Source: Candidatus Latescibacterota bacterium (GTDB taxonomy: Bacteria; Latescibacterota; UBA2968; UBA8231). From it: a DNA stretch of 64,000 nucleotides. The notes beneath the pieces are model-generated. The model saw only the letters and a program-made list of their open reading frames with translations. It was not told where the DNA came from and did no database searches. Below, one piece after another: positions 985 to 25,495 of this stretch. The position numbers and the translations under genes are program-made. Where the stretch lies: the NCBI GenBank assembly GCA_965217585.1, contig OZ244561.1, positions 3,808,001 to 3,872,000 of the forward strand, written 5' to 3'. Every line of letters starts with the position of its first letter. Positions within the stretch are counted from its first letter, which is position 1.

Positions 985-992
985 GTAGTCTC

Positions 993-2891: not shown

Positions 2892-2901
2892 TTTAGCCTC
2901 C

Positions 2902-4581
2902 TCATGTGTTGCGCACGAGGGCCTCCACCTGCTCGCGGAAGACCTCAATTTGCGCTGCGTATTGGTGGCGCAATTGGATAATGAATTGCCCAAAGAGCCG
3001 CTCCTGCTTTTGGCGGCGCACCAGCGCCCGCGCTCGGCGCTCGGCCTGCGCGAAGGGCCTCGGTGCGGCGTTGATCGTCGAATCGAGCAACCGGAAAATG
3101 GCGTAGTACGGGCCGCTGACCGGCTCAGAGCTTAGCACCTCGGCGGCGGTGACCTCCACGGCGATGGGGCCGATGAGTGTGCCGATTTTTTGCCCTTGTG
3201 CCGCCTCAAAGAGTGGGACGAACTGTTGCTTTTCCCAAGGATGCAGATGGAACTCGCCCTGCTGGGCTTTGCCGCGCCGGCGCAGGGTGTGCTCGGCAGC
3301 CAGCGCGCCTAAGTCGCCGCCGCGCTCCACCTCCTCGCGCAGCGCGAGCGCCTCCTCCTCGGTGCGGAGCAAAATTTCCTGCACACCGATCGATTCGAGG
3401 GGGCGGAAAAGGTCTAAGTGGCGGTCGTAGAACGCGCGAGCTTCTTCGCGGCTGGCGAAGACGCCATCGACCACGTCCCGGCGCATGGCCACCAGTAGCT
3501 TTGATAGCTGCCGCTTTTGGAACCAAGCGACCACGCCCTCTTCGCGGTCAACGCCCGCCGTATACGCGCCAGCCAAGAGCAGGGCTCGCGGCTCGACGAT
3601 GTCCTCGACGAACCAATCGAACCGCTCGGGCGCGTCCTCTGGGAAGCCGACGCCTAGCTCGCGGGCAAAATCGAGCAGATTGCCGATGGTAAAGACGCCG
3701 CTCTCGTGCTCGTAGATAGGCTGCTCAAGCTCCTCCGCAGAAAACGCCTTGGCACCCTGCCCGATGCGCCCGCGTACGCGCTCCAAAGCTTGGGCGTGAA
3801 CCACAAAGTCGAGTTCCTGCCGCAAGCGGGCCGACAGCGCCTGCACGGCCGGCGGCAGCTTCTCCGCGAGCAGTTCGGCCTCGATTACCAACTGTACGAC
3901 CGAGAGCGCGACCGGCACTTCGGCTGTTACCTCGTACACGCCGAACTGGTCGTTGAAGAGCACTGGCTCCGAAAACTGGCCCGGTGCCAGCGGAAAGACC
4001 TCTTCCTGCAAGATGGATGGGTACAGCTCGTCCTTGAGCAGGTAGCGGCCTCCCTCTAGCTGAGTCGCGTTGAGCAGGTTGCGGCTGGCCCATGTATCGA
4101 AGTAGTCGCCGCCTTCCAAGGCCGCCTTGACTTCTCGCGCCTCTTGTATTGTGGCAACTACGATGCGCCGCACCTGCACGGCGCGGTCGCGGCCCGTCTC
4201 TCGTTGATGGGCCAGCAGTTCTTCTTGCGTGTGGACGATCTTGTCGTACACCTCTAGCTGCAAAAAGCGGCGCAAGACGCGGTCGCTATACAATTTGTCC
4301 ATCTTGCGGCGGAAGTCGGCGCGCTGGTCGAGGCCCCGCTTTTTGGCTTCTAGGACCATGAGCTCCTTGTCGATCATAGTTTGCAAGTAGTCGAAATAGG
4401 CGTCAGCACCCGTCTTTTTGCTCCGCAGATCGGGGTGTAGCCTTTCTTCAAATTCCAGCAATTGGGGGGCGTCGATTTCCACCTCGCCGACTCGGGCCAC
4501 CACCAAGTCCTCGGTTGGGGTGCCGCAGCCCCAGAAAACGAGGAGCCACAACCAATATACCGCGTATTTCGATCTAATCAC
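2902..4581 (-). CDS. Parvulin/PpiC-type peptidyl-prolyl isomerase lipoprotein (SurA/PrsA-like, two rotamase-like modules)
   Basis: Lipobox-like VFWGC; VVARVGEVEI; LQTMIDKELMVLEAKKRGLD; two modules VQVRRIVVATIQEA...FSEPV and VQEILLRTEEEA...LIGPI. Confidence 0.75.
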   Translation of the reverse strand: MIRSKYAVYWLWLLVFWGCGTPTEDLVVARVGEVEIDAPQLLEFEERLHPDLRSKKTGADAYFDYLQTMIDKELMVLEAKKRGLDQRADFRRKMDKLYSDRVLRRFLQLEVYDKIVHTQEELLAHQRETGRDRAVQVRRIVVATIQEAREVKAALEGGDYFDTWASRNLLNATQLEGGRYLLKDELYPSILQEEVFPLAPGQFSEPVLFNDQFGVYEVTAEVPVALSVVQLVIEAELLAEKLPPAVQALSARLRQELDFVVHAQALERVRGRIGQGAKAFSAEELEQPIYEHESGVFTIGNLLDFARELGVGFPEDAPERFDWFVEDIVEPRALLLAGAYTAGVDREEGVVAWFQKRQLSKLLVAMRRDVVDGVFASREEARAFYDRHLDLFRPLESIGVQEILLRTEEEALALREEVERGGDLGALAAEHTLRRRGKAQQGEFHLHPWEKQQFVPLFEAAQGQKIGTLIGPIAVEVTAAEVLSSEPVSGPYYAIFRLLDSTINAAPRPFAQAERRARALVRRQKQERLFGQFIIQLRHQYAAQIEVFREQVEALVRNT

Positions 4582-7432
4582 TAAGCCCTGCTTGTACTGT
4601 GACGAAAGTCAATCCACTGGTTTCGGTGCGGGCCTGCTGCGCCGCGCGCTCTATCTGCCGCTTGTCAATGCGCAGCCCCACTTGGGACATGAGCTTATAG
4701 CCCAAGTACGATGTCGTATTGGACAATTGCACGGCAAAGGACGTCTCGTCGTAGTCCCCAGTGGAGTCGCCCGGGTTGACGGTGGTTTCGTCCACGACCA
4801 TGTCGCGGAAGCGCAAGTGCTCCACGCCGAGTTGTACGACCGAGCGTTTCATAAAGGGCACCTTTACCAATACCGAGGCCATCGTGCTCCAGTCGCGGCG
4901 CTCGGCTGTGGGGGTGCCCAGCTGCCGCTCGATATTGAACGGGGTATCGTCCATGAACAGCTCTTGCTTGAGGCGCGGTAGCGCGGTTATGCGGCCCAAA
5001 TGCACCGGGTACTCGGCCTTGTTGATCAGCCCCAAGCGCCGCGCATTGCGTTGCAAGGGGCGGCCATCGCGGTCAACGGCATCTTCTCGCCGCTGCTGAA
5101 TGAATTCATACAGCAGCTTGTTCTCGCTTTGGAAGCCATCGCGGCCGCGGCGCTCAGCGCCTATCCACAGCTTGTTGACCAAGGCGTCGCCCATACCCAG
5201 CGGATCGCGGATGGCGGTCATGCTGCCCGGGGAGTTGCTCGGGCGACCGAGCACGGGGCGCAGTTGAATCCACTGCACCAAGTCTTCGGCGATCGCGTCG
5301 GCGACCCACTTGAACGAATTATACGCCGTCAGCGTGCCCAATCCGGCAAAGCTCTGTTCGTACGCGAGCAGGGCATAATACGTGCGGTTGCGTGCACCCG
5401 TCGTCGGCTTGCGCTCCCACACCTGTCCAGTCGTCAGCTTGAGCTCGGGCCGGAGCTCCGCGCTTAGATAGGCGTTGTACCCGCGCCGGTCGCGCTTGTA
5501 GGGGTAGTCGGGCTCTTCGTCGTTTTCAAAGCGGTCGCCCCAGCCGTTGTTGTTCAAGTCGAGAGCGAAGAGATATTCCGGCCGATCGACATTGTAGCGG
5601 AGAAAAGGCTCTTCGTAGTCGGGCAAGAAATTGGGACGCTGGCGCAGGTCGTTTTGATTGAAATCGGAAATAAAGTCGTTGTTCTCGTCGAGGCCCGGGA
5701 AGACCGCGTCGTCGGCAAAGCCCTCAAAGGTGCGCGCGCGGACGCCGCGCTGGTCGCCGGTGCGGCCGTCGTCAAAGCGGCGCTTCTGGTCGTTGATGCG
5801 GTCGTTGTCGTCATTGTCATCGACAAAGTCGTACACGTGCCGCGCCCGCGCTTCGTCGTCGTTTGACCAATCAACCCGGCCGCTGCTATCGACAAAGCGG
5901 GGGCTCGTGTCGTATTCGGCGTCTAGGCCAAATGCCTCGCCAAAAAAGAAAAACGGTGCGAAGCGGCGCGATACATTGAACATCCAGCCGAGGGCCGCGC
6001 GATCCCCGCCAATGCCCGAGGACGCTTTGTGCGTATCCCGCGTCCGCGTCGGGTACTGGGTGAATTGGTGATTGACGTTGAATTCGCCGTACGCGCGGAA
6101 GCCAGCCCAATCGTCGGCCTGTAGCGTCAGCCCGGCTACCTGCGTCGCCGTCGGCAGCCCGTAGTCGAAGACCACCGTCCGCTGGTTGGAGTTGTCCCAG
6201 ACGTTGCCCTCGGCCCGGGCGACCGTGCGAAACTGCGGCTGCTCGCCGCTGAAGTTGTTGTCGGTCTGGCGGTTGGACGTGACCTCTACCTTGTAGTCGT
6301 TGCCCAACGCCAAGTGGAAGCGCACCCGGCTGATTTGGTTGACCAAGTCCGCGCTCGGCACTACGGCCTCTAGGTCCGAGACCGCCGGATCGTCGTCGGA
6401 AAACACGTATTCGAGCAAGATCTGGCTCGCCTCGCCCCGGCCCTCGGCCGTCAGAAAACCACCCCGCTCGATCCCACCGATGATGCGCGGCGCGAAGCCA
6501 ATCTGACTGCCAATTAGCAGGGTATCCCGCTCGCCGATCCGCGTCTCAATCTCAATGTCGCTGCTAAAAAGCACGGCCCCGCCGCCCTCGTCTTCGGGCG
6601 AATCGTCGGTCAGCCGCACCACGATGCGGTCGATGCGTCCGTCTAGCTGGCCGCTCGTCAGCTTACCCTTGAGCGGGTGTCCCTCAAAGCGGTCGGAAGC
6701 CGTGCGGCCGTTGTGCGCGTTGAGAAAGGTGCCGCCGATCCGCGTCGTAGCACCCAGGTCCCAGACCACGCGCCCGCCGATGAGGTTGGTGAAATTGTCC
6801 TCTGTCACGGGAAAGGGGTCCGTGCGGAAAAGCGGCAGGTTGATCCGCGACATGAGCACGGTGGCCGTCAGGCGATCAGCCGCGTAGTTGAACATAACCC
6901 CATTGTACGCGGTCTTGCGAAAGGTCATGGGCGTCAGCATGGCGAAGATTTCGTCGCCGATGAGCACCGAGAAATAGTGCTGGCCCTTGGTGTCGCCGGC
7001 AAGGACCAAGTTGTTGAACCACGAGCCGTATTGGCCGGCCTGCAAAATGCCCGAGCCGCCCGAGCCGGTTGGCTGTATCTGACGCCAGTCGTAGATCAAC
7101 CAGCCCTTGTTCAAGAAGCGCCCGTAGAGGTCGTAGAAGTACCCGCCCTCCAAGGCGGGATTGAGGTAGCGCCGGTATGGGTCCCGCGCGTAGTTGGTGT
7201 AGGTCCACTGCCGGCGGTACTCGCCGGCGATTTCCTGCGGCAGATACCACTTCTGCAACGAGGGATAGACGGCCTCCATGCGCAGCCCCGTGCCGGACGA
7301 ATAGTAGATCGGCTGGCCCGCTTCGATGCGGCCCAAGCGGCTACCGTAATCCTCGCGCTGGGCCTTGAGCGGCGCGGCCCCAAGCAGCGCGACCCAGCAG
7401 AGAGCGCCGACGCGGCGCAAGCAGGCATTCAT
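4574..7432 (-). CDS. Large exported hypothetical protein (952 aa), putative outer-membrane beta-barrel with Asp-rich insert; paralogue of 7437-10193
   Basis: Signal peptide; Asp/Asn-rich block (DDNDDNDR...DENNDFISDFNQND...DLNNNGWGDRFEND); alternating-hydrophobic strands at the C-terminus ending FVTVQAGLSD. Confidence 0.65.
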   Translation of the reverse strand: MNACLRRVGALCWVALLGAAPLKAQREDYGSRLGRIEAGQPIYYSSGTGLRMEAVYPSLQKWYLPQEIAGEYRRQWTYTNYARDPYRRYLNPALEGGYFYDLYGRFLNKGWLIYDWRQIQPTGSGGSGILQAGQYGSWFNNLVLAGDTKGQHYFSVLIGDEIFAMLTPMTFRKTAYNGVMFNYAADRLTATVLMSRINLPLFRTDPFPVTEDNFTNLIGGRVVWDLGATTRIGGTFLNAHNGRTASDRFEGHPLKGKLTSGQLDGRIDRIVVRLTDDSPEDEGGGAVLFSSDIEIETRIGERDTLLIGSQIGFAPRIIGGIERGGFLTAEGRGEASQILLEYVFSDDDPAVSDLEAVVPSADLVNQISRVRFHLALGNDYKVEVTSNRQTDNNFSGEQPQFRTVARAEGNVWDNSNQRTVVFDYGLPTATQVAGLTLQADDWAGFRAYGEFNVNHQFTQYPTRTRDTHKASSGIGGDRAALGWMFNVSRRFAPFFFFGEAFGLDAEYDTSPRFVDSSGRVDWSNDDEARARHVYDFVDDNDDNDRINDQKRRFDDGRTGDQRGVRARTFEGFADDAVFPGLDENNDFISDFNQNDLRQRPNFLPDYEEPFLRYNVDRPEYLFALDLNNNGWGDRFENDEEPDYPYKRDRRGYNAYLSAELRPELKLTTGQVWERKPTTGARNRTYYALLAYEQSFAGLGTLTAYNSFKWVADAIAEDLVQWIQLRPVLGRPSNSPGSMTAIRDPLGMGDALVNKLWIGAERRGRDGFQSENKLLYEFIQQRREDAVDRDGRPLQRNARRLGLINKAEYPVHLGRITALPRLKQELFMDDTPFNIERQLGTPTAERRDWSTMASVLVKVPFMKRSVVQLGVEHLRFRDMVVDETTVNPGDSTGDYDETSFAVQLSNTTSYLGYKLMSQVGLRIDKRQIERAAQQARTETSGLTFVTVQAGLSD

Positions 7433-7436
7433 GCCG

Positions 7437-10193
7437 CTACTCCAGCCCCGCGTACACGGTTATGAAGCTGGTGCTAAAGGCGCTGATTTCATTCACCTGC
7501 TCCAAGCCTTCGCTGCCGATAATCACCCGCTCCTCCCACAGGCGCGTATAACTAAAGCCAAACTGCGTCGTGAGCTGGTAGCCCAAGTAGGAGCCGGCGC
7601 TGGACCATTGCAGGGCCAGCACCAAGTTGCGGAAGTCGCCCGTAGGCCCGGCCGGGCCGTTGGTGAGCTGCTCGTCCTCGTCGAGAGCCAAGTCCCGGAA
7701 CAGGGAAAACTCGACGCCCCCTTCCACCAGCGACTGGCTCAACAGCGGGTGGCTCAGCAGCACGATGCCCGTGCCGACCCATTCCTCGCGGTCCTCGGCG
7801 CGCGCTTCGAGCGCGGTCTGGTTGAGATACTCGCTCTTGACCTTGGGCTGCAACCGGAAGCCAGCCAAGCCGAAGGTGTAATCCGCTTTGTTGATCAACC
7901 CAATCAAGTGGCTGCCTTGGTTGAGCACCGGGCCTTTGACGCGGCTTTTGAACGCGCTACCCTGCTGCCAAAAGCGCTCGTACTTGAACTTGTTGCTCGC
8001 GTTTAGATTGTCGAGCGGTTGGTAATCGAGCTGTAAATAGGTCGTGTTGATCCACGTGTCCCGCGCCGGCAGAATGTCGCGCACCAGCGCGAGCGAGTTG
8101 ACTTCGAGGTGCGGCGTCATCTCGCGCCGGTCATCGGCGATATCGTCTTCGACGCGCCGCAGCATCTCAAAGGCCCGCAGCCGGCCCCAAGTAAAGTCGC
8201 GGTCGTAGGTCAGCAGGCCGTACGCAGCGCGGTTGCGCCCGTCGGAGGCCATGCTCTCTTCGCTCAGCCTTCCCAACGTCAGCCGGGTGTGCGGGTCGAG
8301 GAAGACGCCGGCGTACAGGTTGTAGCCTCGGCGATCGACCTTGTAGGGATAGTCGGGCAAGTCGTCGTTTTCAAAGCGGTCGATCCAACCATTGTTGTTT
8401 AGGTCGATGCCAAACAAAAACTCCGGGCGATCGGCCGCATAGCGGAAGAAAGGCTCTTCGTAATCCGGGATGCGGTTGTTGAGAATGCGATTGTCGTTTT
8501 GGTTGAAGTCGGAGACAAAGTCGTTGTTTTCGTCCCACCCCGGGAAGACGGCCACATCGCCGCCGCCCTGCGAGAAGCGGAACCAATCGGCCGAGCGGTC
8601 TTGATCGTCGTTGTCGTCAACCAACTCGTACAGGGACGTGCGCGGATTGTCGTAGGTAATGTCCCCGTTGTCGTCCACGATAAACGAACTCGTCGAGTAA
8701 TCCGGGTCCATGCTGTACGCCTCGCCAAAAAAGTAAAACGGGGCGGCCACTTTTGCGGCGTTGACCATCCAAGCCTCGGCGTCGCGGGCGTGCGTGGCTA
8801 GCGAGCGATCGGCCGCTTGGTGCGCCGGGTTGGGGTACTGGCTGTACGCGCGGCTGACATCGAATTCCGCGTACAGGTCCACGCCCTTGATATCCGTGGC
8901 GTCCAAGGTGAAGCCGTAGATAAAGCGGGACGACGGCAATCCGTAGTCGAAGACGACCCGCTGCTGGTTGGAATTGTCCTGCACATTGCCCTCGGCGCTG
9001 AGGATGTCGAACAACGCCGGAGACTGATCCTCAATGTCTTGGCCCGTCAGCGGCAATACCGGCAGAGCGCGGCTGCCCGTTTGCCGGTCGGACCAAACCT
9101 GCACCTTGTAGTCGTTGGCCAAGACTAAGTCGAACTGCACGGCGACGATCTCCGAGGACCGCGGGCCGGTATAGGCGATATCCGCGAAGTCGTAGTTGAT
9201 GACGATCTTCTCGTCGCCGTCGGCCGCTAAGGCCCCTTCCTTGGGTGCCCCGCCCGAGACCACGGGCCACCGCGCCGGATCGGAGACCACGTCGCGGAGC
9301 CTAAATTGCTCGCGCTCCCCCGTATCTGGATCCTCGCTCGTCAAGAGGATGTCGTGCGAAAACAGGGTGGCCCCGCCCCGACCATCCTCGGGCGAGTCGT
9401 CGCTGAGGATCAGGGCAATGCCCGAGACCGGCAGGCTGCCCTGATTGGCAGCGAGGGTGCCGACGAAGGGGTTGCGCTCAAACGCATCGGCCACTGTGGT
9501 GGAGTTGCGCGCATTGACTAAATTGGCCCCCACGGCCACGAAATCGCCGATCTGCACCACGGCGCGGCCCGCCATCAGGTTGGTGGCATTGGAGACGCCA
9601 CTGGGGGCGCTGGGCGTGCTGCCGATGACCGGGCGGCTCACCCGCGAAAAGAGGAGGGTGCCCTCGTACTTGTCCGCGGCAAAGTCCATCTGCACGCCGC
9701 TGAAGGCCGGCTTGGAAAAGGTGAGCGGGGTCAGGGTCGTGCGGATTCGATCGCCCACCGTGATGGCATAGTAGAACTGGCCTTGCGAGTCCGAGCTAAT
9801 GGTAACCGCGTTGAACCAGTTGTTAAAGCGCCGATCCTTGAAGATGGACGAACCAAATTGCACGGGCTGGTTCTGGCTCCAGTCGTAGATGAGCCAGCCG
9901 CGCGTCAAGTAGTTGCCGTACAGGTCGTAAAACGGAGAGCCTTCAATCGTGGTGCTGACGTAGCGCTCGTACGCGTCGCGCGCGTAGTTGGTGTACTGCC
10001 ACTGCTGCCAGCCGTAGTCGGCAAACAGCTCCTGCGGCACGTACCAGCGCTTGACCGTTGGATCCAAGGCGTCGAAGAGCACGCCCGGCCCCCGCGGTTC
10101 ATAGGTGATTTCCGCGCCCCAGCGCCGGCCTTGGGCATGGGCACTTATCGCCGCGACGAGCAAGGCGGCGAGTACCCACCGTAGGTCTCTCAT
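7437..10193 (-). CDS. Large exported hypothetical protein (918 aa), putative outer-membrane beta-barrel; paralogue of 4574-7432
   Basis: Signal peptide (AHA|Q). Shares motifs along its full length with the neighbour: WY.PQE, YTNYARD, YDLYG...GWLIYDW, DDSPED, AEGNV.DNSNQ, PDYEEPF.RY, GLINKA.Y, YLGY.L, F.TV.AGL. Confidence 0.65.
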   Translation of the reverse strand: MRDLRWVLAALLVAAISAHAQGRRWGAEITYEPRGPGVLFDALDPTVKRWYVPQELFADYGWQQWQYTNYARDAYERYVSTTIEGSPFYDLYGNYLTRGWLIYDWSQNQPVQFGSSIFKDRRFNNWFNAVTISSDSQGQFYYAITVGDRIRTTLTPLTFSKPAFSGVQMDFAADKYEGTLLFSRVSRPVIGSTPSAPSGVSNATNLMAGRAVVQIGDFVAVGANLVNARNSTTVADAFERNPFVGTLAANQGSLPVSGIALILSDDSPEDGRGGATLFSHDILLTSEDPDTGEREQFRLRDVVSDPARWPVVSGGAPKEGALAADGDEKIVINYDFADIAYTGPRSSEIVAVQFDLVLANDYKVQVWSDRQTGSRALPVLPLTGQDIEDQSPALFDILSAEGNVQDNSNQQRVVFDYGLPSSRFIYGFTLDATDIKGVDLYAEFDVSRAYSQYPNPAHQAADRSLATHARDAEAWMVNAAKVAAPFYFFGEAYSMDPDYSTSSFIVDDNGDITYDNPRTSLYELVDDNDDQDRSADWFRFSQGGGDVAVFPGWDENNDFVSDFNQNDNRILNNRIPDYEEPFFRYAADRPEFLFGIDLNNNGWIDRFENDDLPDYPYKVDRRGYNLYAGVFLDPHTRLTLGRLSEESMASDGRNRAAYGLLTYDRDFTWGRLRAFEMLRRVEDDIADDRREMTPHLEVNSLALVRDILPARDTWINTTYLQLDYQPLDNLNASNKFKYERFWQQGSAFKSRVKGPVLNQGSHLIGLINKADYTFGLAGFRLQPKVKSEYLNQTALEARAEDREEWVGTGIVLLSHPLLSQSLVEGGVEFSLFRDLALDEDEQLTNGPAGPTGDFRNLVLALQWSSAGSYLGYQLTTQFGFSYTRLWEERVIIGSEGLEQVNEISAFSTSFITVYAGLE

Positions 10194-10206
10194 TAGACTC
10201 TCCTAA

Positions 10207-12366
10207 TCAGTACACCAATTCGACAACTCTAACCGCTCTTTCGCCGCCCGCATCGCTGGCCAGCGTTACGCGCACTAAGTAAATGCCCGGCGGCAGCGCG
10301 GCCCCGCTCCCATCCGCGCCGTCCCAAGGCATGGCGTATGAACCGCCGCCCTGGAAGCCGGAGAACAGCCGGCGCACCCGGCGTCCGGCCAAATCGACGA
10401 TTTCCACATCGACCGGTGCCGGGCTGACCAAACGGCTCAGATCGTAGTACACCTGCGTCGCATCGTTGATTCCATCGCCGTTGGGGCTGAAGGGCCGAGG
10501 GTCGGCGCGCACGTTGATCAGCAGGGCGCTGCCGCCAGCTAGCGGCACATCCACTGAAAGGCCCCGGTTCGTCTCCGTGCCAACAGCCACAATATCGTCG
10601 TCGCCGGGAGCCAACGCGGCCACGTTGCCGGCGACGACCTCCTGCCCCACATCCCCCCTATTGAAGGCAAAACCGGCGAACTTGGTGCCGTAGCGCAACA
10701 CGCGGCTGCGAAAGCGAATTTTGAGCTGGGCCGTCCGCCCGCTCGCCAGCTCGCTTTCGGCAATGAGGGGAAAGCGCACGCGAAAGCGGCGCGCATCGAC
10801 CGACTCAATGGCAAAGCGTCCGGTCTCGTCGGTAGCCGGCAGCGCGGAAAGATCGGCCGTTGAAAAGTCCGCTACCTCAACCTGCCCATCGGCATCGACG
10901 ACTTCAATGGACTCAATGACCTCTACTCGCACCGGCGTGGCGATTTCAAAACCGTCAAAGCCCGTATCTACGCCTATCCGAATGGAAGTCGGCATCACCG
11001 CATAGACGAAATCCACCGGCTTGCCCAAATCGACCTGACGCGGAAAGATCTCTCCGAGAATCTGCGCAGCCGGCGGCGGCGTAGCCACGGTAAAGGCCAG
11101 CGGGCCGATGCCTGTGGCCGCCTCCAAGTCCTCGCTGAGAAAGTCGATGCGGAACTGGATGTACCGCCTCGGCCCGGGCGAGACAATCGGCACGCCCAAT
11201 TGGCTATCCTCGATCTCTGCCTCAGTCAACAGGGTCCCTAATTCGTAGGGCGAGGACCACGGGCTCCAAGCGTCTAGGTCGGCCACCACATTGCCCCGCT
11301 CGGCACCCAAGCCCTTGTAATCGTCCAGCGACAGCGAGATGGCGTTGCGCTCCTCCAGCGGCAGCGCGCCAAAGAGTGCGCGCGCCCTCTCCAGATCGAC
11401 TTGGTCGAGATTGACCTCGCCGCCCTCGGTCTCAAGCGTGGCATTCTTTTTCCACGGCACCTCGACTTGGACCCCCTCAAAGAAGAAGCGCCGAGTATAA
11501 ACTAAAGGGGTGTCGTCCAAGCCGGTGCGGGTGCGCACGCGCGCGTTGGCGAAACCAGCCGGACCGACGCTTTCCTCCACCCAGCGAATGGTCCCCCACA
11601 AGCCCAAATCTGGGCTGAGATCGAATATGTTGGATACGTATTCGGCCGTGGGCACGAAGCCGGTGCCAAAGACGCGGAACTCGGCGATCTCAAAACCGTT
11701 GCTGGTGCGCGACTGCAAGCGGATGAAGCGCACAAATTGCGGGGGAATGCTCAGATCGACCAGCGCGTCCTGGTTGGCAGCATTCAACCGAAACGAGCGC
11801 CATTCCGGGCCGCCCGCGCCTTGCGTCTCCTCGCTGCCGTCGTTGAAAAACAGCTCGTAGCCGCGGATGAAGTCCTCTTGGAAAGGCGCGGCGGGAAAAT
11901 CCGGGTGGCCATTGCGCGGGAAGAACTGGACGCGATTGACTCCAAAGCGAGCGCCTAGGTCGAAGTCCATGGCCATGCCGCGAATGACGGCCACGTTCTT
12001 GCGCTCCAATGCCGTTTTGCCGTCGCCGTCGATCATCGTCTCTAGCTGCGACTCAATGCCCGCTTCGAGGACCGTCGGCGAGATAACCGAGCCGCCGCGC
12101 CCAAGTATGCCGAGCGCTAGATTGGTGCCCTCGACGACGTTCTGCGGAAAAATCCACCCCACCCGACCCTCGGGATCGAAATCGATCACACCGCCCGGGG
12201 TGTTGCCGCTCTCAACAGCTCTGGCCCCGGTCGGGAAAATCGCCTGTATCTGGCCCCCGCCGTCTTGCCAAGACGATCCGCTCGCGCCGCCGATGGCAAT
12301 GCTCCGCGTCTCGGCGGTGCCTTGCAATGCCGCTAGCAACAGCAGCGCGATCGGCAACCAGTACAT
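10207..12366 (-). CDS. Exported protein with discoidin (F5/8C, CBM32)-like domain and C-terminal FlgD-Ig/CHU_C-like domain
   Basis: ATG at 12366 (MYWLPIALLLLAA) with GGAGG RBS. MIDGDGKT...FDLGARFGVNRVQF...FEIAEFRVFG; tail FSPNGDGIND...IVDLAGRRVR...WDGADGSG...PGIY. Confidence 0.75.
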   Translation of the reverse strand: MYWLPIALLLLAALQGTAETRSIAIGGASGSSWQDGGGQIQAIFPTGARAVESGNTPGGVIDFDPEGRVGWIFPQNVVEGTNLALGILGRGGSVISPTVLEAGIESQLETMIDGDGKTALERKNVAVIRGMAMDFDLGARFGVNRVQFFPRNGHPDFPAAPFQEDFIRGYELFFNDGSEETQGAGGPEWRSFRLNAANQDALVDLSIPPQFVRFIRLQSRTSNGFEIAEFRVFGTGFVPTAEYVSNIFDLSPDLGLWGTIRWVEESVGPAGFANARVRTRTGLDDTPLVYTRRFFFEGVQVEVPWKKNATLETEGGEVNLDQVDLERARALFGALPLEERNAISLSLDDYKGLGAERGNVVADLDAWSPWSSPYELGTLLTEAEIEDSQLGVPIVSPGPRRYIQFRIDFLSEDLEAATGIGPLAFTVATPPPAAQILGEIFPRQVDLGKPVDFVYAVMPTSIRIGVDTGFDGFEIATPVRVEVIESIEVVDADGQVEVADFSTADLSALPATDETGRFAIESVDARRFRVRFPLIAESELASGRTAQLKIRFRSRVLRYGTKFAGFAFNRGDVGQEVVAGNVAALAPGDDDIVAVGTETNRGLSVDVPLAGGSALLINVRADPRPFSPNGDGINDATQVYYDLSRLVSPAPVDVEIVDLAGRRVRRLFSGFQGGGSYAMPWDGADGSGAALPPGIYLVRVTLASDAGGERAVRVVELVY

Positions 12367-12377
12367 CGCAACCTCCC

Positions 12378-14870
12378 TCAATACACCACGTGAACGAGGT
12401 GGTGCCGCGCGGTGCGCTCCACGCGCGAGTCGTCGTTGGGCACCACTTCTACCTCTAGCAGATATAGTCCAGGGAGGACCAGTGCGCCGGATTGATCTTC
12501 GCACGACCAGCGCAGGGCGTACTCGCCGCTGACCAAGGGCCGCGTCTCCTGCCAGTGCCGCACCAGCCGGCCGGCTAGGTCGTAAATCCGCACGTGGAGC
12601 GGCTGGGTGCCGGTCAGCTTAGTGACCGCGAATGAGAACGCCAACTCGTCGTTGATCCCATCCCCATTCGGCGTCGCGACCCCACTGCCAATGTTCAGGT
12701 CGCCCAGCACGTGGCGGCCGCCTTCTGGACCTACCAACAGCATCCCCTGCCCGGTCGCCAACTCCGTTGCATCCGCTGGATCAACCCGCTGCCAGGAGTT
12801 CTCAAGGGCCGAATGCCCCAACGACGCCTTGAACACAGCACCGGGCAAGTAGAGGGCGGTGGCGAATTGTACCTCAATCAGATCGGCTGCGGACGGGGCG
12901 ACGACCTCGCTTAACCGCACCCACAAAGAGTCTGGGGCGGTCGCCACCACTTCTGCTGAGGCCGCTAGTTCCGCGCTGTCCCATTGGGCCTCGCGCCCCA
13001 GCCGCAGTCCGCGGAACTCCAGTACCATGTTGTCCGGTGCCCTTATCTGCACCTCGTCAAACCCCGCGCTCTGGGAAGCAAAGCTCGGTTTGATGAAAAG
13101 CGAAAGCTCCTGCTCCTTGCCCAACGCGCCCACGACGCTGGGTTCGATCTCGCCCAAAAGCTGGCTGGCCAACGGCTCGACGAAGTTGAGCCGAATGGAG
13201 CGCAGTTCGGCCGCGCGGTGCGGGTCGTCCGAGAGCAAGCGGGCCTTGAGCTCCAGAAATTGGCGCGGGCTTGGCGAAGTGATCGCCGCGCCCGAGGCCT
13301 CGTAGGGCAAGCTCCACGCGCTCCAGTCGGCTCCAGGGGCTTCCGTCGTGTCGATCCGCCCCTTGCTGAAAAAGCCCAAGCCGGCGTATGCCTCGGCCGA
13401 AACTTCGGCACCGCCGCTGTTGAAGTAGCTATACTCTTCGACCAACTCGCTGCCCGTGCGCGTCTGAATTTCGACAAAGGTCCCCAAATCGGCGTCTCCA
13501 TCCCATTCAATCGAGACCAAGTTTTTCGAGCCGCCCAAGCGGATGAGCGGCGAAACCAACTCGACCTCCGGCTGGAAACCCTCTCCGTAGAACTGCACCT
13601 CGCGCGGCTTGAACTGACCGCCTCCCCAGAACAAAATTCGCGCAAAGCGCGTTCGCGCCGGCGCGAACGTATCCACGTCGTACACATCTTCGGTCGTGTG
13701 GGCGGAAGTGGCGCGATTGCGATGCGAGGCCTGCGTCGTCCACACCAGCGAGCCGTCCGCAGCCAGCGAGCCGTCTGAAGTCTGCAAGTCGTAATTGGGA
13801 AAGCGGCTGCGCTGGCGGTCGTAGTAAATCTGGTGCCGGTCGATCCAGAAGAAAGAGCCTAAGTCGAAGAATAATTCCCGTATCTCGTCGGTGCTGGTAA
13901 AGGCCAAGGACGTCTCAAAGATGCCGTCGAAGAAGGCCGTCGCGGGCGCGTTGTCCAAGAAAGTGAGCAACGCGACGCCTCTGCGCTCCACCAAGCCCAG
14001 CGAGATGTTTTCCCCGAGCGTCTGGACCTCCAGCTCGGCCAGCCGCGGCCGCTCGCGGCGGTAGCGGCGGATCTCACCGCGCAACGCGGAGTCAACCACC
14101 TCGTACGTGGCCTCGCTCACCTGCACTTGGCCCGCACCGGCCTTTTTGTAAAAATCCACCGCGCCCCGATCCGCAGCCGCTAGCTGGTCGTATTGTTCAG
14201 CCGACACCTCGGCGGCTCGCGTGCTATCCGTGTCGGTGATCGTCATGCGCACGAAGCGGATGTAGTCGCTCGCCATGCGCCCGTCTATGTCAAAGCGCGT
14301 GGGGCCCAGCTCGATTGCAAATTCTCGTTGATCCTTGTTCGACTGCAAAGTGCGGAAGACTTGGTTGAATTTGCGCTGGCCTTTCGTCACCTCGTCTCCG
14401 TCCGAGGTCAAGACCACGAATTGCAGGAAGGGATCGCCTAGCTCCCCGCCGACGAATTTGAGCCGGATGTGGGTGGCCGCCACCAGCCGCCCCAAATCGA
14501 CCTCGAACCACCATTGGCGCAGCGGGCTTGCCGGATCGGGTTCCCAATAGGTGCTCAAGTCTCCGTCGAAAAGGTGAACCAGATCTGCGGCCCGAGTGCC
14601 CGCGTTGAGGGCGTCGCGCAGGGTCGCGTCCTCCGAGTCCTTGCCGCGCTTGATAAACGCCGCGATGTCTGACGTTGCCAGTATGTTCTTGGGCACGAAG
14701 TGAGGACGCACGGCCCCGGTTTCGTCGATGTCGAGCGTGCCGGCGGGAAAAGTCCACTGCTGCCAGTGCGTCTGCCGATCGACGACGACCTTATTCCCGG
14801 CGATGGTATGGCCCTGTCCCCAGGCGGCGACAACGCCCAATATGCTCAGCAGCAACGCAGCATTCAACAT
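12378..14870 (-). CDS. Exported protein with two discoidin-like domains and C-terminal FlgD-Ig/CHU_C-like domain
   Basis: Signal peptide; LFDGDLSTYWE...VDLGRLV; FFDGIFETS...FDLGSFFWID; tail TPNGDGIND...IYDLAGRLVR...PGLY. Confidence 0.75.
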   Translation of the reverse strand: MLNAALLLSILGVVAAWGQGHTIAGNKVVVDRQTHWQQWTFPAGTLDIDETGAVRPHFVPKNILATSDIAAFIKRGKDSEDATLRDALNAGTRAADLVHLFDGDLSTYWEPDPASPLRQWWFEVDLGRLVAATHIRLKFVGGELGDPFLQFVVLTSDGDEVTKGQRKFNQVFRTLQSNKDQREFAIELGPTRFDIDGRMASDYIRFVRMTITDTDSTRAAEVSAEQYDQLAAADRGAVDFYKKAGAGQVQVSEATYEVVDSALRGEIRRYRRERPRLAELEVQTLGENISLGLVERRGVALLTFLDNAPATAFFDGIFETSLAFTSTDEIRELFFDLGSFFWIDRHQIYYDRQRSRFPNYDLQTSDGSLAADGSLVWTTQASHRNRATSAHTTEDVYDVDTFAPARTRFARILFWGGGQFKPREVQFYGEGFQPEVELVSPLIRLGGSKNLVSIEWDGDADLGTFVEIQTRTGSELVEEYSYFNSGGAEVSAEAYAGLGFFSKGRIDTTEAPGADWSAWSLPYEASGAAITSPSPRQFLELKARLLSDDPHRAAELRSIRLNFVEPLASQLLGEIEPSVVGALGKEQELSLFIKPSFASQSAGFDEVQIRAPDNMVLEFRGLRLGREAQWDSAELAASAEVVATAPDSLWVRLSEVVAPSAADLIEVQFATALYLPGAVFKASLGHSALENSWQRVDPADATELATGQGMLLVGPEGGRHVLGDLNIGSGVATPNGDGINDELAFSFAVTKLTGTQPLHVRIYDLAGRLVRHWQETRPLVSGEYALRWSCEDQSGALVLPGLYLLEVEVVPNDDSRVERTARHHLVHVVY

Positions 14871-14882
14871 GGCCCCTGCTCC

Positions 14883-16829
14883 TCAATAGGCGACGGCAAT
14901 GGGCCGCATTTGCACTTGGCGCTCCCCACCGCTCTCGACCTCGACTTGGCAGATGTACAGACCGGGGGCGACCTGCTGGCCGGCCTCGTCGCGCCCGTCC
15001 CATTGACGCGGATGTCGTCCCGCGCCATCGACGTCTGAGTACACGCGCCGCACCAAGCGGCCGCTCAAATCCCGCACCAGCACCTCCACCGGCACCGGCT
15101 CGGTCACTTTGAGCAGCTCGTAGGCAATCTCCACTTGGTCGTTGATCTGGTCGCCGTTGGGCGTAAACGCCTCGGTGCTCAGCGACACGGCCCCTAAGAC
15201 CTTATCGTCTAGGGTCATCGCCTGCACCAAAAGTTGATTGCCGTCCACTAGCTCGCTGGCCTCGCCGGCGGCCACGAGCTGCCCGATCTCCCCCGGCGCT
15301 GTGCTGTCGATCACCCGACCTTCAAAAATTGCGCCAAAGCGGAAAATTTCGGCGCGCACATCCACTTCGAGCAGCTCGCCGCTGCGCGCGACATCCAGCC
15401 GCGGGAAACCCAACATTACGCCGGCCACCTCGGCCACGGCACTGAAATCCGCCACGGGTGCGCCGCTGAGGCGCACGGCCTCCACGCCGACGATCCGGCC
15501 ACCGACCAAGCTCAGGTCCAACCCGTCAAATCCTTGGTCGCCGGGTTCAATCGTCGGGCGCAATGCATAGGTGAACGTGCGTTCCTCAGCCACTGCCGCT
15601 TGCCAAGGATCGACCTCGCCGACTAAGGCGGTCACCAAGCGCGGGGAAACGGCGAATTCGAGATAGTCGAGCTGGCCGCCAGCTTGGCCGAAGGATTTGA
15701 ATGCTATCCCAAACTGCACGTAGCGGTGGGAGCGCGTCGCCCGCAGGGCTACGCCCGCGCTGTCGGCGAATTCGTACGGCGACGACCACAGCTCCCATTG
15801 GGCGGTGTCGTCGGTGATGGCCCCGCGCACGATCGGCCCCAAGCGGCTATAGCTTTTGCGGGTCAGCAGCTTGCCGTCCTCGCCAAAGGGTACCTGCTCG
15901 TCGCCGCGGAAGGTCTTGCGCCAGTACACGAGCGGTGTCTCGTCACCACCGGCGCGAGAGCGGATCTCCACTTGCGCCCCTTCGTCCCGCCGCCCTCCCC
16001 AGCGCACCCAGCCCAAATTGGCGAATTCGCCTAGGTCGAGAACGTTGGACTGGTGCGAGGCCGAGCCTTGGAAACCGCCGCCGTACACCTCCAGCTCAGC
16101 CAAGTCCCATATCTCATTTTGGGGCATCACGTGAATCATCAAATAGCGGATGGGCGTCCCGTCTAGCTCAATGTCGAGCTGCGGATCTTTGTTTTCCAGG
16201 ATTTCCGCGACCACCTTTAGCTCAATGCCCTTTTGTTGCTTGGGATCCAGCGACCTACCGAGCGCACTCGTTCCGACGAATTCAATCTCATCAACGCCAC
16301 CCCCGGCCTCGGTCTGCGCGGCGACGATGACGTGGGCGACCGAGCGCTCGCTGCCTGCCTGCGGGATAAAGCGGACCAACCGCGTCGCAAAGTCGCCGCC
16401 GAGGTCAAAGAACAAAGCCGTGCCGTGGAAGTTATGAGCGTGTTCCCTAGGACGAGTCTCTAAGAAAAACGTCGTCGGGTCCCCGTCGATCACCAACCGC
16501 AACTCGTCGCCGACATCTTCAAAACCATTGTACGCGCCGTGCTGAAAATTGCCGCTGACCCCGCTCAAGGTCGTCGCCATATTATCGCCCTCGTTGTAGA
16601 AAAACGGCGTGATCTGCTCACTGAGCGCGAGCCCAAAGCTCTGGCCGCCGAGATTCTTGTCTAAGTCGGCCCAGCTCAACTGGCGAAACTCAGCACCGGC
16701 CTCCACCTCGGCCGGAGGCGGCAGGCCCTCGCCGCCGATGCGATAGACGACCAAGGCCGCGCTTGGCTGGACGCCGATCAAAGCCAACAGGGCCGCGATG
16801 AGCCACGTCGTGCGCTGCAATTCTTTCAC
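14883..16829 (-). CDS. Exported protein with discoidin-like domain and C-terminal FlgD-Ig/CHU_C-like domain
   Basis: GTG start with GGAGG RBS; signal peptide; VIDGDPTTFF...FDLGG...LAELEVYG; tail FTPNGDQIND...DLSGRLVR...WDGRDEAG...PGLY. Confidence 0.75.
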   Translation of the reverse strand: MKELQRTTWLIAALLALIGVQPSAALVVYRIGGEGLPPPAEVEAGAEFRQLSWADLDKNLGGQSFGLALSEQITPFFYNEGDNMATTLSGVSGNFQHGAYNGFEDVGDELRLVIDGDPTTFFLETRPREHAHNFHGTALFFDLGGDFATRLVRFIPQAGSERSVAHVIVAAQTEAGGGVDEIEFVGTSALGRSLDPKQQKGIELKVVAEILENKDPQLDIELDGTPIRYLMIHVMPQNEIWDLAELEVYGGGFQGSASHQSNVLDLGEFANLGWVRWGGRRDEGAQVEIRSRAGGDETPLVYWRKTFRGDEQVPFGEDGKLLTRKSYSRLGPIVRGAITDDTAQWELWSSPYEFADSAGVALRATRSHRYVQFGIAFKSFGQAGGQLDYLEFAVSPRLVTALVGEVDPWQAAVAEERTFTYALRPTIEPGDQGFDGLDLSLVGGRIVGVEAVRLSGAPVADFSAVAEVAGVMLGFPRLDVARSGELLEVDVRAEIFRFGAIFEGRVIDSTAPGEIGQLVAAGEASELVDGNQLLVQAMTLDDKVLGAVSLSTEAFTPNGDQINDQVEIAYELLKVTEPVPVEVLVRDLSGRLVRRVYSDVDGAGRHPRQWDGRDEAGQQVAPGLYICQVEVESGGERQVQMRPIAVAY

Positions 16830-16847
16830 AATGGCACCTCCAAGAAG

Positions 16848-16878
16848 AAGGGGGGATGGAACTAGCCCATCCCCCCTT
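16848..16878. terminator. Intra-operon stem-loop (partial terminator or mRNA-stabilising hairpin)
   Basis: Perfect 12-bp inverted repeat AAGGGGGGATGG-N7-CCATCCCCCCTT between the first and second operon genes; no long U-tract. Confidence 0.6.
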
Positions 16879-16904
16879 GTCCTTCCATCCTAGACACTGC
16901 CCGC

Positions 16905-17855
16905 TTACTGGACGTAGGCAGACTTGATGCGACCCCAGCTATTCTCCTCGACCGCGCTCTCGATCGCGCTGAAATCGACGCGCGGATCAACGGGTGCCAG
17001 CAGGAAATCCGTAGCCGAAGCCGTGGTTTTCCACACGTCGCTGGCTCCCGAAAGGGACCACTGGCCAGAGTGCTCGGTATCTTGGCCAACGCCGCCATCG
17101 GCACCGGCTACATCGCTGTCGAAGACCGCCCAGCCCAAGCCGGTGATCTCGCCTTCGTTGTAGTCGTGGATGACGCTGCCGTCTGGGTCGTTGAAGAGAA
17201 AGTCATCCCAGGATTGGCGCCGCACCTCGATAAAGGCCGTGGCCTCGCCACCGCCAATTTGGCCGTCCAAGCGGAAGCCGTGGTCGGCGTAGGGCAGCTC
17301 GTCGTGCCACTGCGCTTGGGTCATCCAAAACCACGACCAACTCTCTTGGCCATCGGGACCGAGGTTCGGGAAGCGGGTGTGGTAGGACTGCGCCCAGCGG
17401 CCTTGGGCCAAGGTGCGCTCTTCCTCGTCTTCTATGTCGCCGGTGCCGAAGCGCATCTGCTCGCCTCCGTGGTCGCCATCGACGTGCATTTCCCAGCTAT
17501 CGTCGCCGCCGGCCACGCCGCCTTGGGCGTCGCGATCGTAGAAGTCGTCAAAGCGCTCCATCATGAGGTAGATGCTATTGGTCGACTCGCTCCAGCCAAC
17601 GATGGTGCGGAAGTTCAAGTCGCCGAAATCGGCCGGCTTTTCGCCGTTGAACTCGGTGTGCTCGGCAAAGGCAATCGAGTAGTCCTCGGGCACGATCGAC
17701 CATTCGGACAGATCGCCGTCCAGCGTTGGCTCAAGGCCCGCCGGCCACTGGAAAGCCGTGCGCACAGCGCCCTCGGGCACGTGCGCCGTAGCCGGAGCAA
17801 CGACGCCCACGCACAGGGCCAGTGCGAGCAAAACAGTGATTTTTTTCAAAATCAT
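16905..17855 (-). CDS. Exported CBM9/DOMON-like sugar-binding protein with C-terminal 'AVEENSWGRIK' motif
   Basis: Signal peptide; PTLDGDLSEW, VGWS...IYL, DSWEMHVDGDH, GWAVFDSD. AAGGAGG spacing suggests the true start is TTG at 17849 (MKKITV). Confidence 0.65.
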   Translation of the reverse strand: MILKKITVLLALALCVGVVAPATAHVPEGAVRTAFQWPAGLEPTLDGDLSEWSIVPEDYSIAFAEHTEFNGEKPADFGDLNFRTIVGWSESTNSIYLMMERFDDFYDRDAQGGVAGGDDSWEMHVDGDHGGEQMRFGTGDIEDEEERTLAQGRWAQSYHTRFPNLGPDGQESWSWFWMTQAQWHDELPYADHGFRLDGQIGGGEATAFIEVRRQSWDDFLFNDPDGSVIHDYNEGEITGLGWAVFDSDVAGADGGVGQDTEHSGQWSLSGASDVWKTTASATDFLLAPVDPRVDFSAIESAVEENSWGRIKSAYVQ

Positions 17856-17897
17856 CCTCCTTGGTTTTAGTTAAAACGCCCGCTACAGTGGGGCATA

Positions 17898-17926
17898 GTA
17901 TTATAATGAAAATGCTTTCGTTGCAC
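17898..17926 (-). promoter_or_regulatory. Putative sigma70-type promoter of the envelope operon
   Basis: AT-rich intergenic stretch; the minus strand reads GTGCAA...TATAATAC about 45 bp upstream of the first gene. Confidence 0.35.
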
Positions 17927-17972
17927 TGCACTTACTTTGGTAACGACCTCCTTTCTCTTGTGAGGTTGTAAT

Positions 17973-19496: not shown

Positions 19497-19613
19497 GTCG
19501 CAGATTCTCTCCGGAACCAGAGTGGCGATTATAAACGTTGCAAGTGCTTGTCGTACAAGTAGTATATATGTACATAGCCAAAAACTAAGTCAAGAAAGAA
19601 AGAGCCTAGCAAT

Positions 19614-20777: not shown

Positions 20778-20900
20778 ACCCATGGCTGCTTGGACTCGGG
20801 CGACAAGCGCTCGCTTTGAAAAAAAACCGGCGATGCCTATACTGTCTGCCTATCCGGTGTCGGCCTTTCTTCACCATATCCTCCATGATCGTTCCACATT

Positions 20901-23108: not shown

Positions 23109-23253
23109 CAAAGGGTAGAGGATGATCGTACACAACAGTGCCTTGCTCTTTATCAAGACACGGCTCACCGCCTAGGCGATAGTCGCCTGTAGTGAGGCCC
23201 TATCGAGTGCGACCTATGTGTGTAGCCTCATCAGCGACTAACTACACATTATG

Positions 23254-25377: not shown

Positions 25378-25495
25378 CTAAGTAGAGTTCCAGCGCATCC
25401 GCTACTTGGCTAAGTAGAGGCAACGAGAAATACTGTTCGAACCAGTCTCCGACCAACTGACCGAGTTTGTGTCCGGATGAAGCTAGTCCCGCCAT
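25378..25495 (-). pseudogene. Restriction endonuclease-like gene, 5' part (split by IS)
   Basis: ATG at 25495 with GGAG RBS, 12 bp after the MTase stop: MAGLASSGHKLGQLVGDWFEQYFSLPLLSQVADALELYL, then the IS. Confidence 0.75.

Follow-up and report, generated by a model that had tools for sequence, protein, structure and literature searches.

A heavily multiplied outer-membrane barrel cassette in Latescibacterota with a possible role in substrate capture and import

We analyzed a stretch of 64,000 nucleotides from a Candidatus Latescibacterota bacterium (GenBank assembly GCA_965217585.1, contig OZ244561.1, positions 3,808,001 to 3,872,000 of the forward strand), hereafter the window, and found that an operon on its minus strand, T-A-B1-B2-B3-C1-C2-D (window positions 2902-19496), is one of many copies of an outer-membrane module that is specific to its lineage. 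This cassette is real, conserved, heavily multiplied and undescribed, and its interpretation as an envelope module organized around new beta-barrels, C1 and C2, is well supported. By analogy with the Sus system and other polysaccharide utilization loci (PULs), we give roughly an even chance to the cassette being a substrate-specific capture-and-import module, that is, a functional analogue, and not a homologue, of Sus/PUL. Latescibacterota are widespread uncultured members of the FCB superphylum (Fibrobacteres-Chlorobi-Bacteroidetes); for their uptake of complex organic matter, the 2015 genome study of the phylum (PMC4454575) assumed non-specific porins.

Results

Layout of the cassette

The cassette comprises the following features, given from its first gene to its last, all on the minus strand of the window:

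17973..19496, minus strand: T, opening gene of the cassette, encoding a tetratricopeptide repeat (TPR) lipoprotein of 507 aa with TPR matches in Pfam
16905..17855, minus strand: A, secreted protein of an uncharacterized family, 316 aa, with a His at the N-terminus of the mature protein, a second invariant His and a TAVE..WGxIK tag
16830..16904 (stem core ~16849-16877), minus strand: hairpin in the A-B1 gap, recognized by its folding energy and by a U-rich run after the stem
14883..16829, minus strand: B1, secreted protein, 648 aa, with a tail like FlgD-Ig and like a type IX secretion system (T9SS) C-terminal domain (CTD)
12378..14870, minus strand: B2, secreted protein, 830 aa, combining a discoidin (F5/8 type C) domain with a FlgD-Ig-like tail
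10207..12366, minus strand: B3, secreted protein, 719 aa, with a predicted CBM32-like domain, Ig-like domains and a FlgD-Ig tail, adjoining the barrel gene upstream
7437..10193, minus strand: C1, predicted outer-membrane beta-barrel of an undescribed family, 918 aa, first of a position-specific pair (AlphaFold2 model)
4574..7432, minus strand: C2, barrel paralogue, 952 aa, second of the pair
2902..4581, minus strand: D, predicted lipoprotein, 559 aa, with two parvulin chaperone modules of the SurA/PEB4/PrsA type

All seven open reading frames (ORFs) from A to D lie on the minus strand within 2902-17855, the intergenic distances in order being 75, 12, 11, 13, 4 and -8 bp, and all seven proteins have signal-peptide-like N-termini. 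The coordinates of B3 start at the ATG at 12366, which precedes its signal peptide (the mechanical ORF extends to 12504). Nine window proteins were scanned with Pfam and NCBIfam, and among the cassette genes these scans matched no TonB receptor, SusC/D, ABC or secretion-system family. An earlier note on this DNA, made from the letters alone, had listed the seven co-directional ORFs with their spacings, signal peptides and the hairpin in the 75-bp gap, and had seen no TonB-dependent, SusC/D, ABC or secretion gene among them; the coordinates and the scans agree with both statements. Its delimitation of the set was too narrow: the seven genes are real, and the TPR lipoprotein gene T upstream is an eighth member that recurs with them. 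A consensus scan for promoters and terminators over window positions 800-20000 found fewer sites than in shuffled sequences and yielded nothing informative.

The barrel proteins C1 and C2

C1 and C2 are 41% identical to each other and matched no Pfam family at E<=10 and no NCBIfam family; against the sequences of solved structures, C produced one chance-level match (E 0.0092), to a restriction-enzyme subunit. The best named family for C in the Atlas, DUF6029 at 0.89, was recognized below the usual level and is a weak lead. The AlphaFold2 model of C1, based on a 60-sequence alignment, has a pLDDT of 82.4 and a pTM of 0.80. When this model was compared with known structures using Foldseek, the first 15 listed matches were all outer-membrane barrels, with TM <= 0.27; the barrels matched by Foldseek or by the VIA search below include SlpA, LptD, MtrB, FimD, TonB receptors, SprA and the Omp85 family, and the top match is the SlpA barrel 8ae1_A (E 2.4e-8, TM 0.27). 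In an exhaustive VIA search with the same model, all or nearly all matches were likewise membrane barrels, with Z <= 13.4. Because the structural matches are all or nearly all barrels, and C has no sequence relative with a solved structure, the confident model shows C as a very large outer-membrane beta-barrel that belongs to no described family. The model and its matches thus bear out the earlier assignment of the two ~930-aa paralogues as barrels. The likeness to SprA, with E 1.3e-5 and TMq 0.25, is a generic one. Structural overlap extends furthest for LptD, MtrB and SlpA (348-416 aligned residues), which resemble C in fold class and size; however, they have no sequence relationship with it, and LptE, cytochrome and SLH features were unmatched in the nine scanned proteins.

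By our own count along the DSSP strand list of the model, which was read as a string and not from coordinates, C would have ~26-28 strands. Assuming periplasmic termini, the model would place in extracellular loops of C1 a 61-residue beta-rich insert (residues 288-348), a 42-residue loop and a 125-residue Asp-rich segment (496-620), whereas the N-terminus (residues ~22-100), a poorly modelled part with conserved aromatic positions, would form a periplasmic extension of ~80-100 residues.

The cassette is multiplied in its own genome

The genome to which the window belongs (labelled G000) is a single contig of 7.32 Mb, in which about 70 relatives of full length came up when all six frames were searched with C1. 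Among the ORFs of at least 90 aa that were then called, phmmer (E<=1e-5) matched 81 to C, 38 to A, 41 to D, 13 to E (the gene after D, described below) and ~200 to the B family. Chaining of family neighbors within 3 kb yielded 51 barrel-bearing clusters, of which 24 contain A, B, C and D together and 46 contain at least one B (counts from the cluster listing). The summed spans of these clusters amount to ~0.70 Mb, or 9.5% of the genome, a value derived from the 19.2% covered by clusters together with their 7-kb flanks; with 81 paralogous ORFs and this share of the genome, the barrel family is a major unnamed part of the biology of Latescibacterota. Gene order is variable, the exact order A-B-B-B-C-C-D being present in two of the 51 clusters, and 45 of the 77 full-length barrels are single; therefore, the 1:3:2:1 composition proposed in the earlier note does not hold as a rule.

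In a tree of the 77 full-length barrel paralogues of this genome, the first and second barrels of two-barrel cassettes fall into two separate sister clades in 7 of 7 cases, and the barrels of divergent three-barrel cassettes also form position-specific clades. This consistent split shows that the pair in the window is old and differentiated rather than a recent duplicate. The position-specific triplets belong to a deeply divergent barrel clade and are found in five clusters of G000 (242200-252079, 1314032-1344916, 3752202-3760726, 4386437-4397201 and 7032218-7042853). ExbD or MotA/ExbB genes flank two of these five, which hints at a different, possibly energized subtype.

The cassette is conserved in related genomes

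C1 has more than 1000 relatives in the databases (718 representative clusters at E<=1e-3); where named, they are called 'hypothetical protein' and come from metagenome-assembled genomes of Latescibacteria or Gemmatimonadetes. We took 79 loci from species-representative genomes; their titles are nearly all Latescibacterota, with some Gemmatimonadetes/Gemmatimonadota and one Planctomycetota. Presence was counted in the 58 loci that have full 10-kb flanks: B is found in 58, D in 52, A in 51, T in 43 and E in 8 of them, the set A-D is complete in 45, and 52 have two or more barrels. Across the phylum, a C match (E<=1e-20) was found in 71 of 121 sampled genomes, with a distribution that follows families: 40/40 in the family of the window's genome and 13/13 in family f10, versus 0/29 in f2 and 0/13 in f3.

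The best conserved adjacency of the cassette is B followed by C. The first barrel has a B gene immediately upstream in 49 of 59 cases in the own genome and in 75 of 89 cases in the related loci, where this gene is of the B3 type in 74 of 89. For the 64 A genes of the related loci, the next gene is of the B1 type in 45, and T stands directly before A in 31. The 51 clusters and the synteny in the 58 loci support the view in the earlier note of a self-contained, recurring envelope module. Literature searches turned up no description of the cassette, and two Latescibacteria genome papers (PMC12993501, PMC4454575) do not mention it in their passages on secretion and the outer membrane.

The B proteins and the type IX secretion link

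The tails of the B proteins open with a PNGDG-type motif, match FlgD_ig with 39.2 (B1), 21.7 (B2) and 38.7 bits (B3; cut-off 27), and can be aligned with the PorU model over its last ~80 positions. The scores against the type-B model CHU_C were 23.0, 17.9 and 19.1 bits for B1-B3, below the cut-off of 27; TIGR04131 was not among the NCBIfam matches of B at E<=0.01, and the type-A model TIGR04183 matched B3 only, with 21.1 bits versus a cut-off of 23. A hidden Markov model built from 125 B tails showed that 225 ORFs of the genome end in this domain, 143 of them inside barrel clusters.

Upstream of the tail, B2 has a discoidin domain (F5_F8_type_C_2 29.7 bits, cut-off 27.8; F5_F8_type_C 27.4 bits, cut-off 28.2), and the AlphaFold2 model of B3 (pLDDT 85.7) is a string of beta-sandwich domains. 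At the domain level, the Foldseek matches of the B3 model are 4a44 (TMt 0.75) and 4zz5 (TMt 0.79), both CBM32 modules, along with Ig/MG/Fn3-type domains, and no catalytic domain is among them; the whole-chain matches, galactose oxidase (E 3.7e-10, TMq 0.15-0.18) and GH92 (TMq 0.18), have low TM. Among solved structures, the sequence search matched only the FlgD Ig domain. Taken together, the discoidin match of B2 and the CBM32 likeness of the B3 model suggest that the B proteins are non-catalytic and lectin-like, with a CBM32/discoidin-like domain and Ig-like spacers.

The core T9SS genes SprA and PorU are present in the genome, both over cut-off: SprA with 604.8 bits for the frame (G000:C1:3679708-3685083) and PorU with 627.5 bits (G000:C1:579260-582436). 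Beside PorU lies a PorV-like gene (G000:C1:578110-579030) with 153.8 bits, below the cut-off of 250. The genome may have a reduced or divergent T9SS, outside Bacteroidota. The proposal in the earlier note that the B tails are type-B CTDs paired with a PorP/SprF partner is not supported by family membership: the tails stay under the type-B cut-off, C1 and C2 have no PorP match, and TIGR03519, in a search that had no positive control, found no PorP/SprF in the genome.

Protein A, its tag and its hairpin

A has no match in Pfam (E<=10), NCBIfam or the sequences of solved structures, and the best 120 of its 273 homologues are all unnamed or 'hypothetical' and have no Pfam domain. Of 121 homologues, 116 have His25 (window positions 17781-17783) and five are gapped there; in all of these 116 it directly follows a predicted signal-peptidase site (A/G/S at -1, median of 22 preceding residues). 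His129, in a DxDHSGG-type motif, is present in 121 of 121 sequences, and several Asp and Glu are near-invariant. This pattern is a sequence signature that makes A a candidate histidine-brace protein of the kind seen in lytic polysaccharide monooxygenases (LPMOs) and CopC; Pfam matched A to neither an LPMO nor a CopC family. The earlier description of A as 'CBM9-like' did not survive. Its language-model neighbors in the Atlas include three clusters in which CBM9_1 occurs in 13%, 37% and 100% of members; however, none of 19 family members matches PF06452 CBM9_1 at E<=0.1, and A itself does not at E<=10.

The tail of A carries the motif TAVE..(S/T)WGx(I/L/V)K plus a few residues (positions 16905-16960 in the window), which is found in 32 of 38 paralogues. 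Defined as this motif with 2-9 residues after the K and no transmembrane segment, the tag stands at the C-terminus of 67 ORFs in the genome, of which 31 belong to the A family. Among the remaining 36 are a more distant A-like group in which the N-terminal His is likewise present, ~10 PD40/TolB-like beta-propeller proteins encoded in a tandem array, and five members of a third family. Tag-bearing sites elsewhere include G000:C1:6837388-6852960 and 2433255-2435435. The tag looks like an undescribed sorting signal. Away from barrels, it is shared by no fewer than three secreted families that are unrelated to one another, which suggests a general sorting signal and makes a donor strand specific to C unlikely.

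The A-B1 hairpin consists of a 12-bp G+C stem followed by a U-rich run, with a folding energy of -38.5 kcal/mol (z -2.98; 0 of 200 shuffles as stable), and could act as an attenuator- or terminator-like element or as a 3' stabilizer. When hairpins of <= -35 kcal/mol in the 90 nt past the stop codon are counted as strong, 17 of 31 A genes have one, compared to 7/64 for B1, 3/59 for B2, 3/48 for B3, 10/63 for C1, 4/18 for C2 and 5/37 for D. The operon is also covered by contigs, 90-99% alike, from four metatranscriptome libraries of two studies, with 30 of 30 depth bins filled in two runs and 24 of 30 in the other two. Contig depth over A and the 3' end of T was 228 (run X17) and 126.9 (X18), versus 8.7-17.3 over B, C and D; in X12 and X19 the corresponding values were 14.5-38.3 versus ~2.6-5.6. 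It should be noted that these contigs come from relatives, that their depth is no basis for ranking genes, and that such libraries may contain contaminating DNA; consequently, the abundance of A is only a hint. This hint agrees with the enrichment of hairpins behind A genes, and RNA depth and the conserved hairpin together hint weakly that A is the most abundant component.

Proteins D, T and E

By sequence, D is a tandem parvulin chaperone lipoprotein of the SurA/PEB4/PrsA type. It matches Rotamase_2 with 51.6 bits (cut-off 27) and has a second parvulin module at residues 377-514; the profile of its family over residues 33-269 aligns with nearly the whole of PEB4/Cbf2 (3rfw, E 2.4e-24) and also with HP0175, PrsA and SurA, whereas the single sequence of D, in phmmer, matched nothing among the solved structures. 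The lipobox Cys19 is invariant in 17 sequences. The earlier note had likened D to the peptidyl-prolyl isomerase lipoprotein of the SprA translocon; given its SurA/PEB4/PrsA class, this link stays an analogy, and no T9SS molecule name occurs among the best 60 of the 70 PDB matches of D.

T has a lipobox-like N-terminus and matches at least 25 TPR-type Pfam families (TPR_2 with 189.5 bits). Of the 31 Pfam families matched by T, the 25 listed include canonical TPR families, and no SusD-type Pfam family was matched among the nine scanned proteins. E, with 13 paralogues in the genome, has no Pfam or PDB match; it is probably co-transcribed with the cassette and is specific to orthologous cassettes. 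The genes that border the cassette in the window are as follows:

993..2894, minus strand: E, 633 aa, no signal peptide, no known family, 7-bp gap after D
208..1002, minus strand: HpcH/HpaI-type aldolase (PF03328, 119.7 bits), directly downstream of E
19614..23108, plus strand: right-handed beta-helix protein and FG-GAP/ASPIC-UnbV protein, neighbors transcribed divergently from the cassette

Genes around the cassettes

The 51 clusters with their 7-kb flanks contain 430 non-family ORFs of at least 150 aa, of which 218 were scanned with Pfam. By our own tallies, these 218 include 18 with DUF6785+DUF6784, 18 of the FG-GAP/ASPIC type, 11 ABC or solute-binding components, five GFO/IDH/MocA oxidoreductases, five PhyH dioxygenases, four GDSL proteins, three sulfatases, three Amidohydro_2 proteins, two HpcH aldolases, one PL4-like protein and one enolase-superfamily protein.

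The DUF6785 family (~650-730 aa) has 78 ORFs in the genome; the one examined has 12 hydrophobic segments on the Kyte-Doolittle scale, and DUF6785/DUF6784 is probably an uncharacterized inner-membrane permease family. Half of these ORFs (39/78) lie within 7 kb of a cluster, compared to ~15 expected from the fraction of the genome covered; they touch 28 of the 51 clusters, and 15 of the 78 immediately adjoin a cassette gene that has the same orientation. Examples with both DUF6785 and DUF6784 are found at L124:4985-6973 and L130:3814-5799. A DUF6785 match is present in 107 of the 121 phylum genomes, many of which have tens of first-look candidates; the literature search found no paper that mentions the family.

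G039, a genome of a sister lineage that has no C match, contains 54 DUF6785 genes, and nine of these loci, all from this one genome, were compared with the cassettes. Four of the nine hold a total of five triads, each composed of an OMP_b-brl protein of ~250 aa, a SusC-like receptor of ~1007-1036 aa and a protein of ~760-796 aa that has no Pfam family. CarboxypepD_reg was matched in all five receptors, and Plug (E<=1e-6) in four. The triads are located at L196, L197, L200 and L204, and the ~780-aa partner may be an undescribed counterpart of SusD. In the genome of the window, only 5 of 25 Plug genes have a DUF6785 gene at a distance of up to 7 kb, and all 25 Plug matches are outside C1 and C2. 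The C cassettes would thus occupy the position that SusC-like receptors hold in the sister lineage, an analogy that is our main argument for a role in outer-membrane nutrient acquisition.

Two further groups of proteins recur near the cassettes. FG-GAP/ASPIC-UnbV proteins (CRTAC1-like) number 58 ORFs genome-wide, of which 30 lie within 7 kb of cassettes and 19 directly adjoin a cassette gene, mostly the TPR gene; in the window, such genes are found at 20901-23108 and 28998-30917. Proteins of ~700 aa with a C-terminal Redoxin/AhpC-TSA thioredoxin-like domain occur in or beside cassettes (L098:17250-19337, L144:8636-10810 and L144:15263-17506); there are 30 such ORFs genome-wide, seven of them near clusters.

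Discussion

Capture and import as the preferred reading

If the cassette captures and imports a substrate, its parts could work together as follows. C1 and C2 would form, as a hetero-pair, the conduit across the outer membrane; B1-B3 would be exported by the SprA/PorU of the genome and displayed on the surface beside the adjacently encoded barrel; A would bind substrate or metal, possibly with a histidine-brace redox site; and D, as a dedicated chaperone, and T, as a scaffold, would serve the barrel or its cargo from the periplasmic side. The imported material would pass to inner-membrane proteins, often DUF6785/DUF6784 or nearby ABC systems, and then to the neighboring oxidoreductases, aldolases, dehydratases and sulfatases.

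The likeness to Sus PULs is threefold: (i) there are many diverged paralogous loci per genome, 51 clusters in this case, near transport and catabolic genes; (ii) a large outer-membrane barrel is paired with non-catalytic surface binding proteins; (iii) SusC-like receptors adjoin the same DUF6785 family in the C-less sister genome. There are also differences. C has neither Plug nor CarboxypepD_reg, and the cassette encodes no protein of a SusD family; its binding proteins end in a T9SS-like CTD instead of having a lipid anchor; and its SurA-type chaperone, TPR lipoprotein and protein A have no Sus counterpart. The suggestion in the earlier note of a Sus/PUL analogue thus gains circumstantial support from the permease-like and catabolic neighbors and from the SusC-like receptors in the same position in the sister lineage.

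Several observations weigh against capture and import. The function of the cassette as a whole is read from its context. C shows no recognizable plug domain, TonB box or other element for energy coupling, which leaves the gating of so wide a barrel unexplained, and the strand number and topology of C come from the DSSP string. Unlike typical PULs, the cassettes have no Glyco_hydro Pfam family among the 218 scanned flanking ORFs, and many of their neighbors have no Pfam family. GldM, GldL and GldN had no match in the genome and GldK only a partial one below cut-off, in a search whose controls gave none above cut-off; with GldK/L/M/N undetected, it is uncertain that the T9SS exports B. For the cassette of the window itself, there is no DUF6785 gene within 64 kb. 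Furthermore, DUF6785 is not co-distributed with C, being present in 29/29 genomes of f2 and 13/13 of f3, which have no C, and in 0/13 of f10, which has C in 13/13; an obligate inner-membrane partnership of DUF6785/DUF6784 with C is therefore rejected. The comparison with the sister lineage covers nine of 54 loci in one genome, and the RNA evidence consists of contig depths in relatives.

A more specific version of this reading is rather doubtful as a whole. The lineage would have replaced or supplemented SusC-like TonB uptake with an unrelated machine, in which paired barrels of 26-28 strands would work with lectin-like proteins delivered by the T9SS, an abundant secreted histidine-brace (copper) protein A would attack the substrate oxidatively or bind it, and a SurA-type chaperone and a TPR lipoprotein would assist. 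This machine would exist in ~50 substrate-specific versions, about a tenth of the genome, and would use TAVE..WGxIK as a new sorting tag.

Alternative explanations

In pilus operons, an abundant first subunit is followed by a barrel usher and a periplasmic chaperone. The cassette could be read along these lines, with C exporting A, and perhaps B, to form a surface fiber, coat or cellulosome-like display, D acting as the chaperone, and adhesion or capture, not import, as the outcome. The apparently abundant first subunit A followed by a strong hairpin, the large barrel, the periplasmic chaperone and the lectin-tipped multi-Ig proteins all recall chaperone-usher systems. The Foldseek list of C includes the ushers FimD and PapC (3rfz_B, E 5.8e-6), A ends in a conserved strand-like tag, and the lack of a recognized plug or TonB element in C would be natural. 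However, there is no Pfam match to an usher or PapD-like family, LptD, MtrB, SlpA and TonB receptors are matched at least as well as the ushers, and by our own strand count C appears larger than the 24-strand usher. D belongs to another chaperone class, that of SurA, which is known for outer-membrane-protein biogenesis rather than for subunit polymerization. The tag of A is also found on three or more unrelated secreted families that lie away from barrels, B already has a T9SS-like export signal, and the enrichment of permease-like genes would be left unexplained. We regard an usher-like function as unlikely.

Alternatively, B and C could be a T9SS cargo and its anchor, B being held at the cell through a CTD bound to the adjacent C, which would then be no channel. 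An Ig-like sorting-domain protein is indeed encoded next to an outer-membrane barrel, and this adjacency is the best conserved one of the cassette; SprA and PorU are encoded in the genome; the tails have PNGDG-type motifs and sub-threshold CHU_C matches; and PMC9143113 offers a precedent in type-B cargo bound to PorP-like proteins. Yet the tails fall under the cut-offs of both the type-B and the type-A models, with TIGR04131 unmatched at E<=0.01, and they resemble the C-terminal domain of PorU itself, the type-A sortase, which is present. No PorP/SprF match was found in C, or in the genome by the search lacking a positive control, and C, which occurs as position-specific pairs or triplets, is ~3 times as long as the PorP model with its 292 positions. 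Such anchoring, which would also leave A, T, D and the transporter context unexplained, appears quite improbable. The T9SS Extended Translocon, SprA-PorV-PPI-SkpA-SprE, offers another parallel: as outlined in PMC10994853 (PDB 8gl8), it combines a giant barrel having an N-terminal extension with a chaperone, a TPR protein and CTD cargo, and the cassette has the same kinds of parts, including the predicted N-terminal periplasmic extension. In contrast, C is not SprA, which is encoded elsewhere in the genome; D is of the SurA/PEB4 type and not Skp; and there are ~50 cassette copies versus one translocon. We assign only a slight probability to a structural or other envelope role, such as a surface layer or tethering lattice like the SlpA barrels of Deinococcus, or host interaction in sponge-associated lineages. 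SlpA is the top structural match of C, two of the four RNA runs (X12, X19) carry a sponge-metagenome label, and discoidin and Ig-like domains are also typical of adhesins; but the TM to SlpA is low (0.27), and a layer needs no ~50 diverged loci, each with a lectin-like set and catabolic or transport neighbors.

If the cassettes do import substrates, they would represent a second independent invention of the PUL principle and would raise the question of how a giant barrel without a plug is gated. If they export or display proteins, they would represent a new pathway of surface assembly, linked to the T9SS and found outside Bacteroidota. In either case, C, A and E are three protein families not yet explored, and the cassettes further provide a candidate for a histidine-brace protein and one for a new sorting tag.

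Other features of the window

Away from the cassette, window positions 41522-49591 contain a second catabolic set of the sugar-acid type, encoding PhyH, HpcH aldolase, short-chain dehydrogenase/reductase, cupin, metallo-beta-lactamase-fold and enolase-superfamily proteins; these genes are of the same kind as those that flank other cassettes. The region 22000-28000 has a low G+C content (0.52-0.57 versus ~0.62) and is probably a mobile insertion, with a DDE transposase gene at 24189-25355 and a DNA methylase gene at 25508-26797. A second stretch of lower G+C content, at 33624-38887, contains an AAA/DUF4143 ATPase gene followed by a 1338-aa ORF that has no Pfam family.

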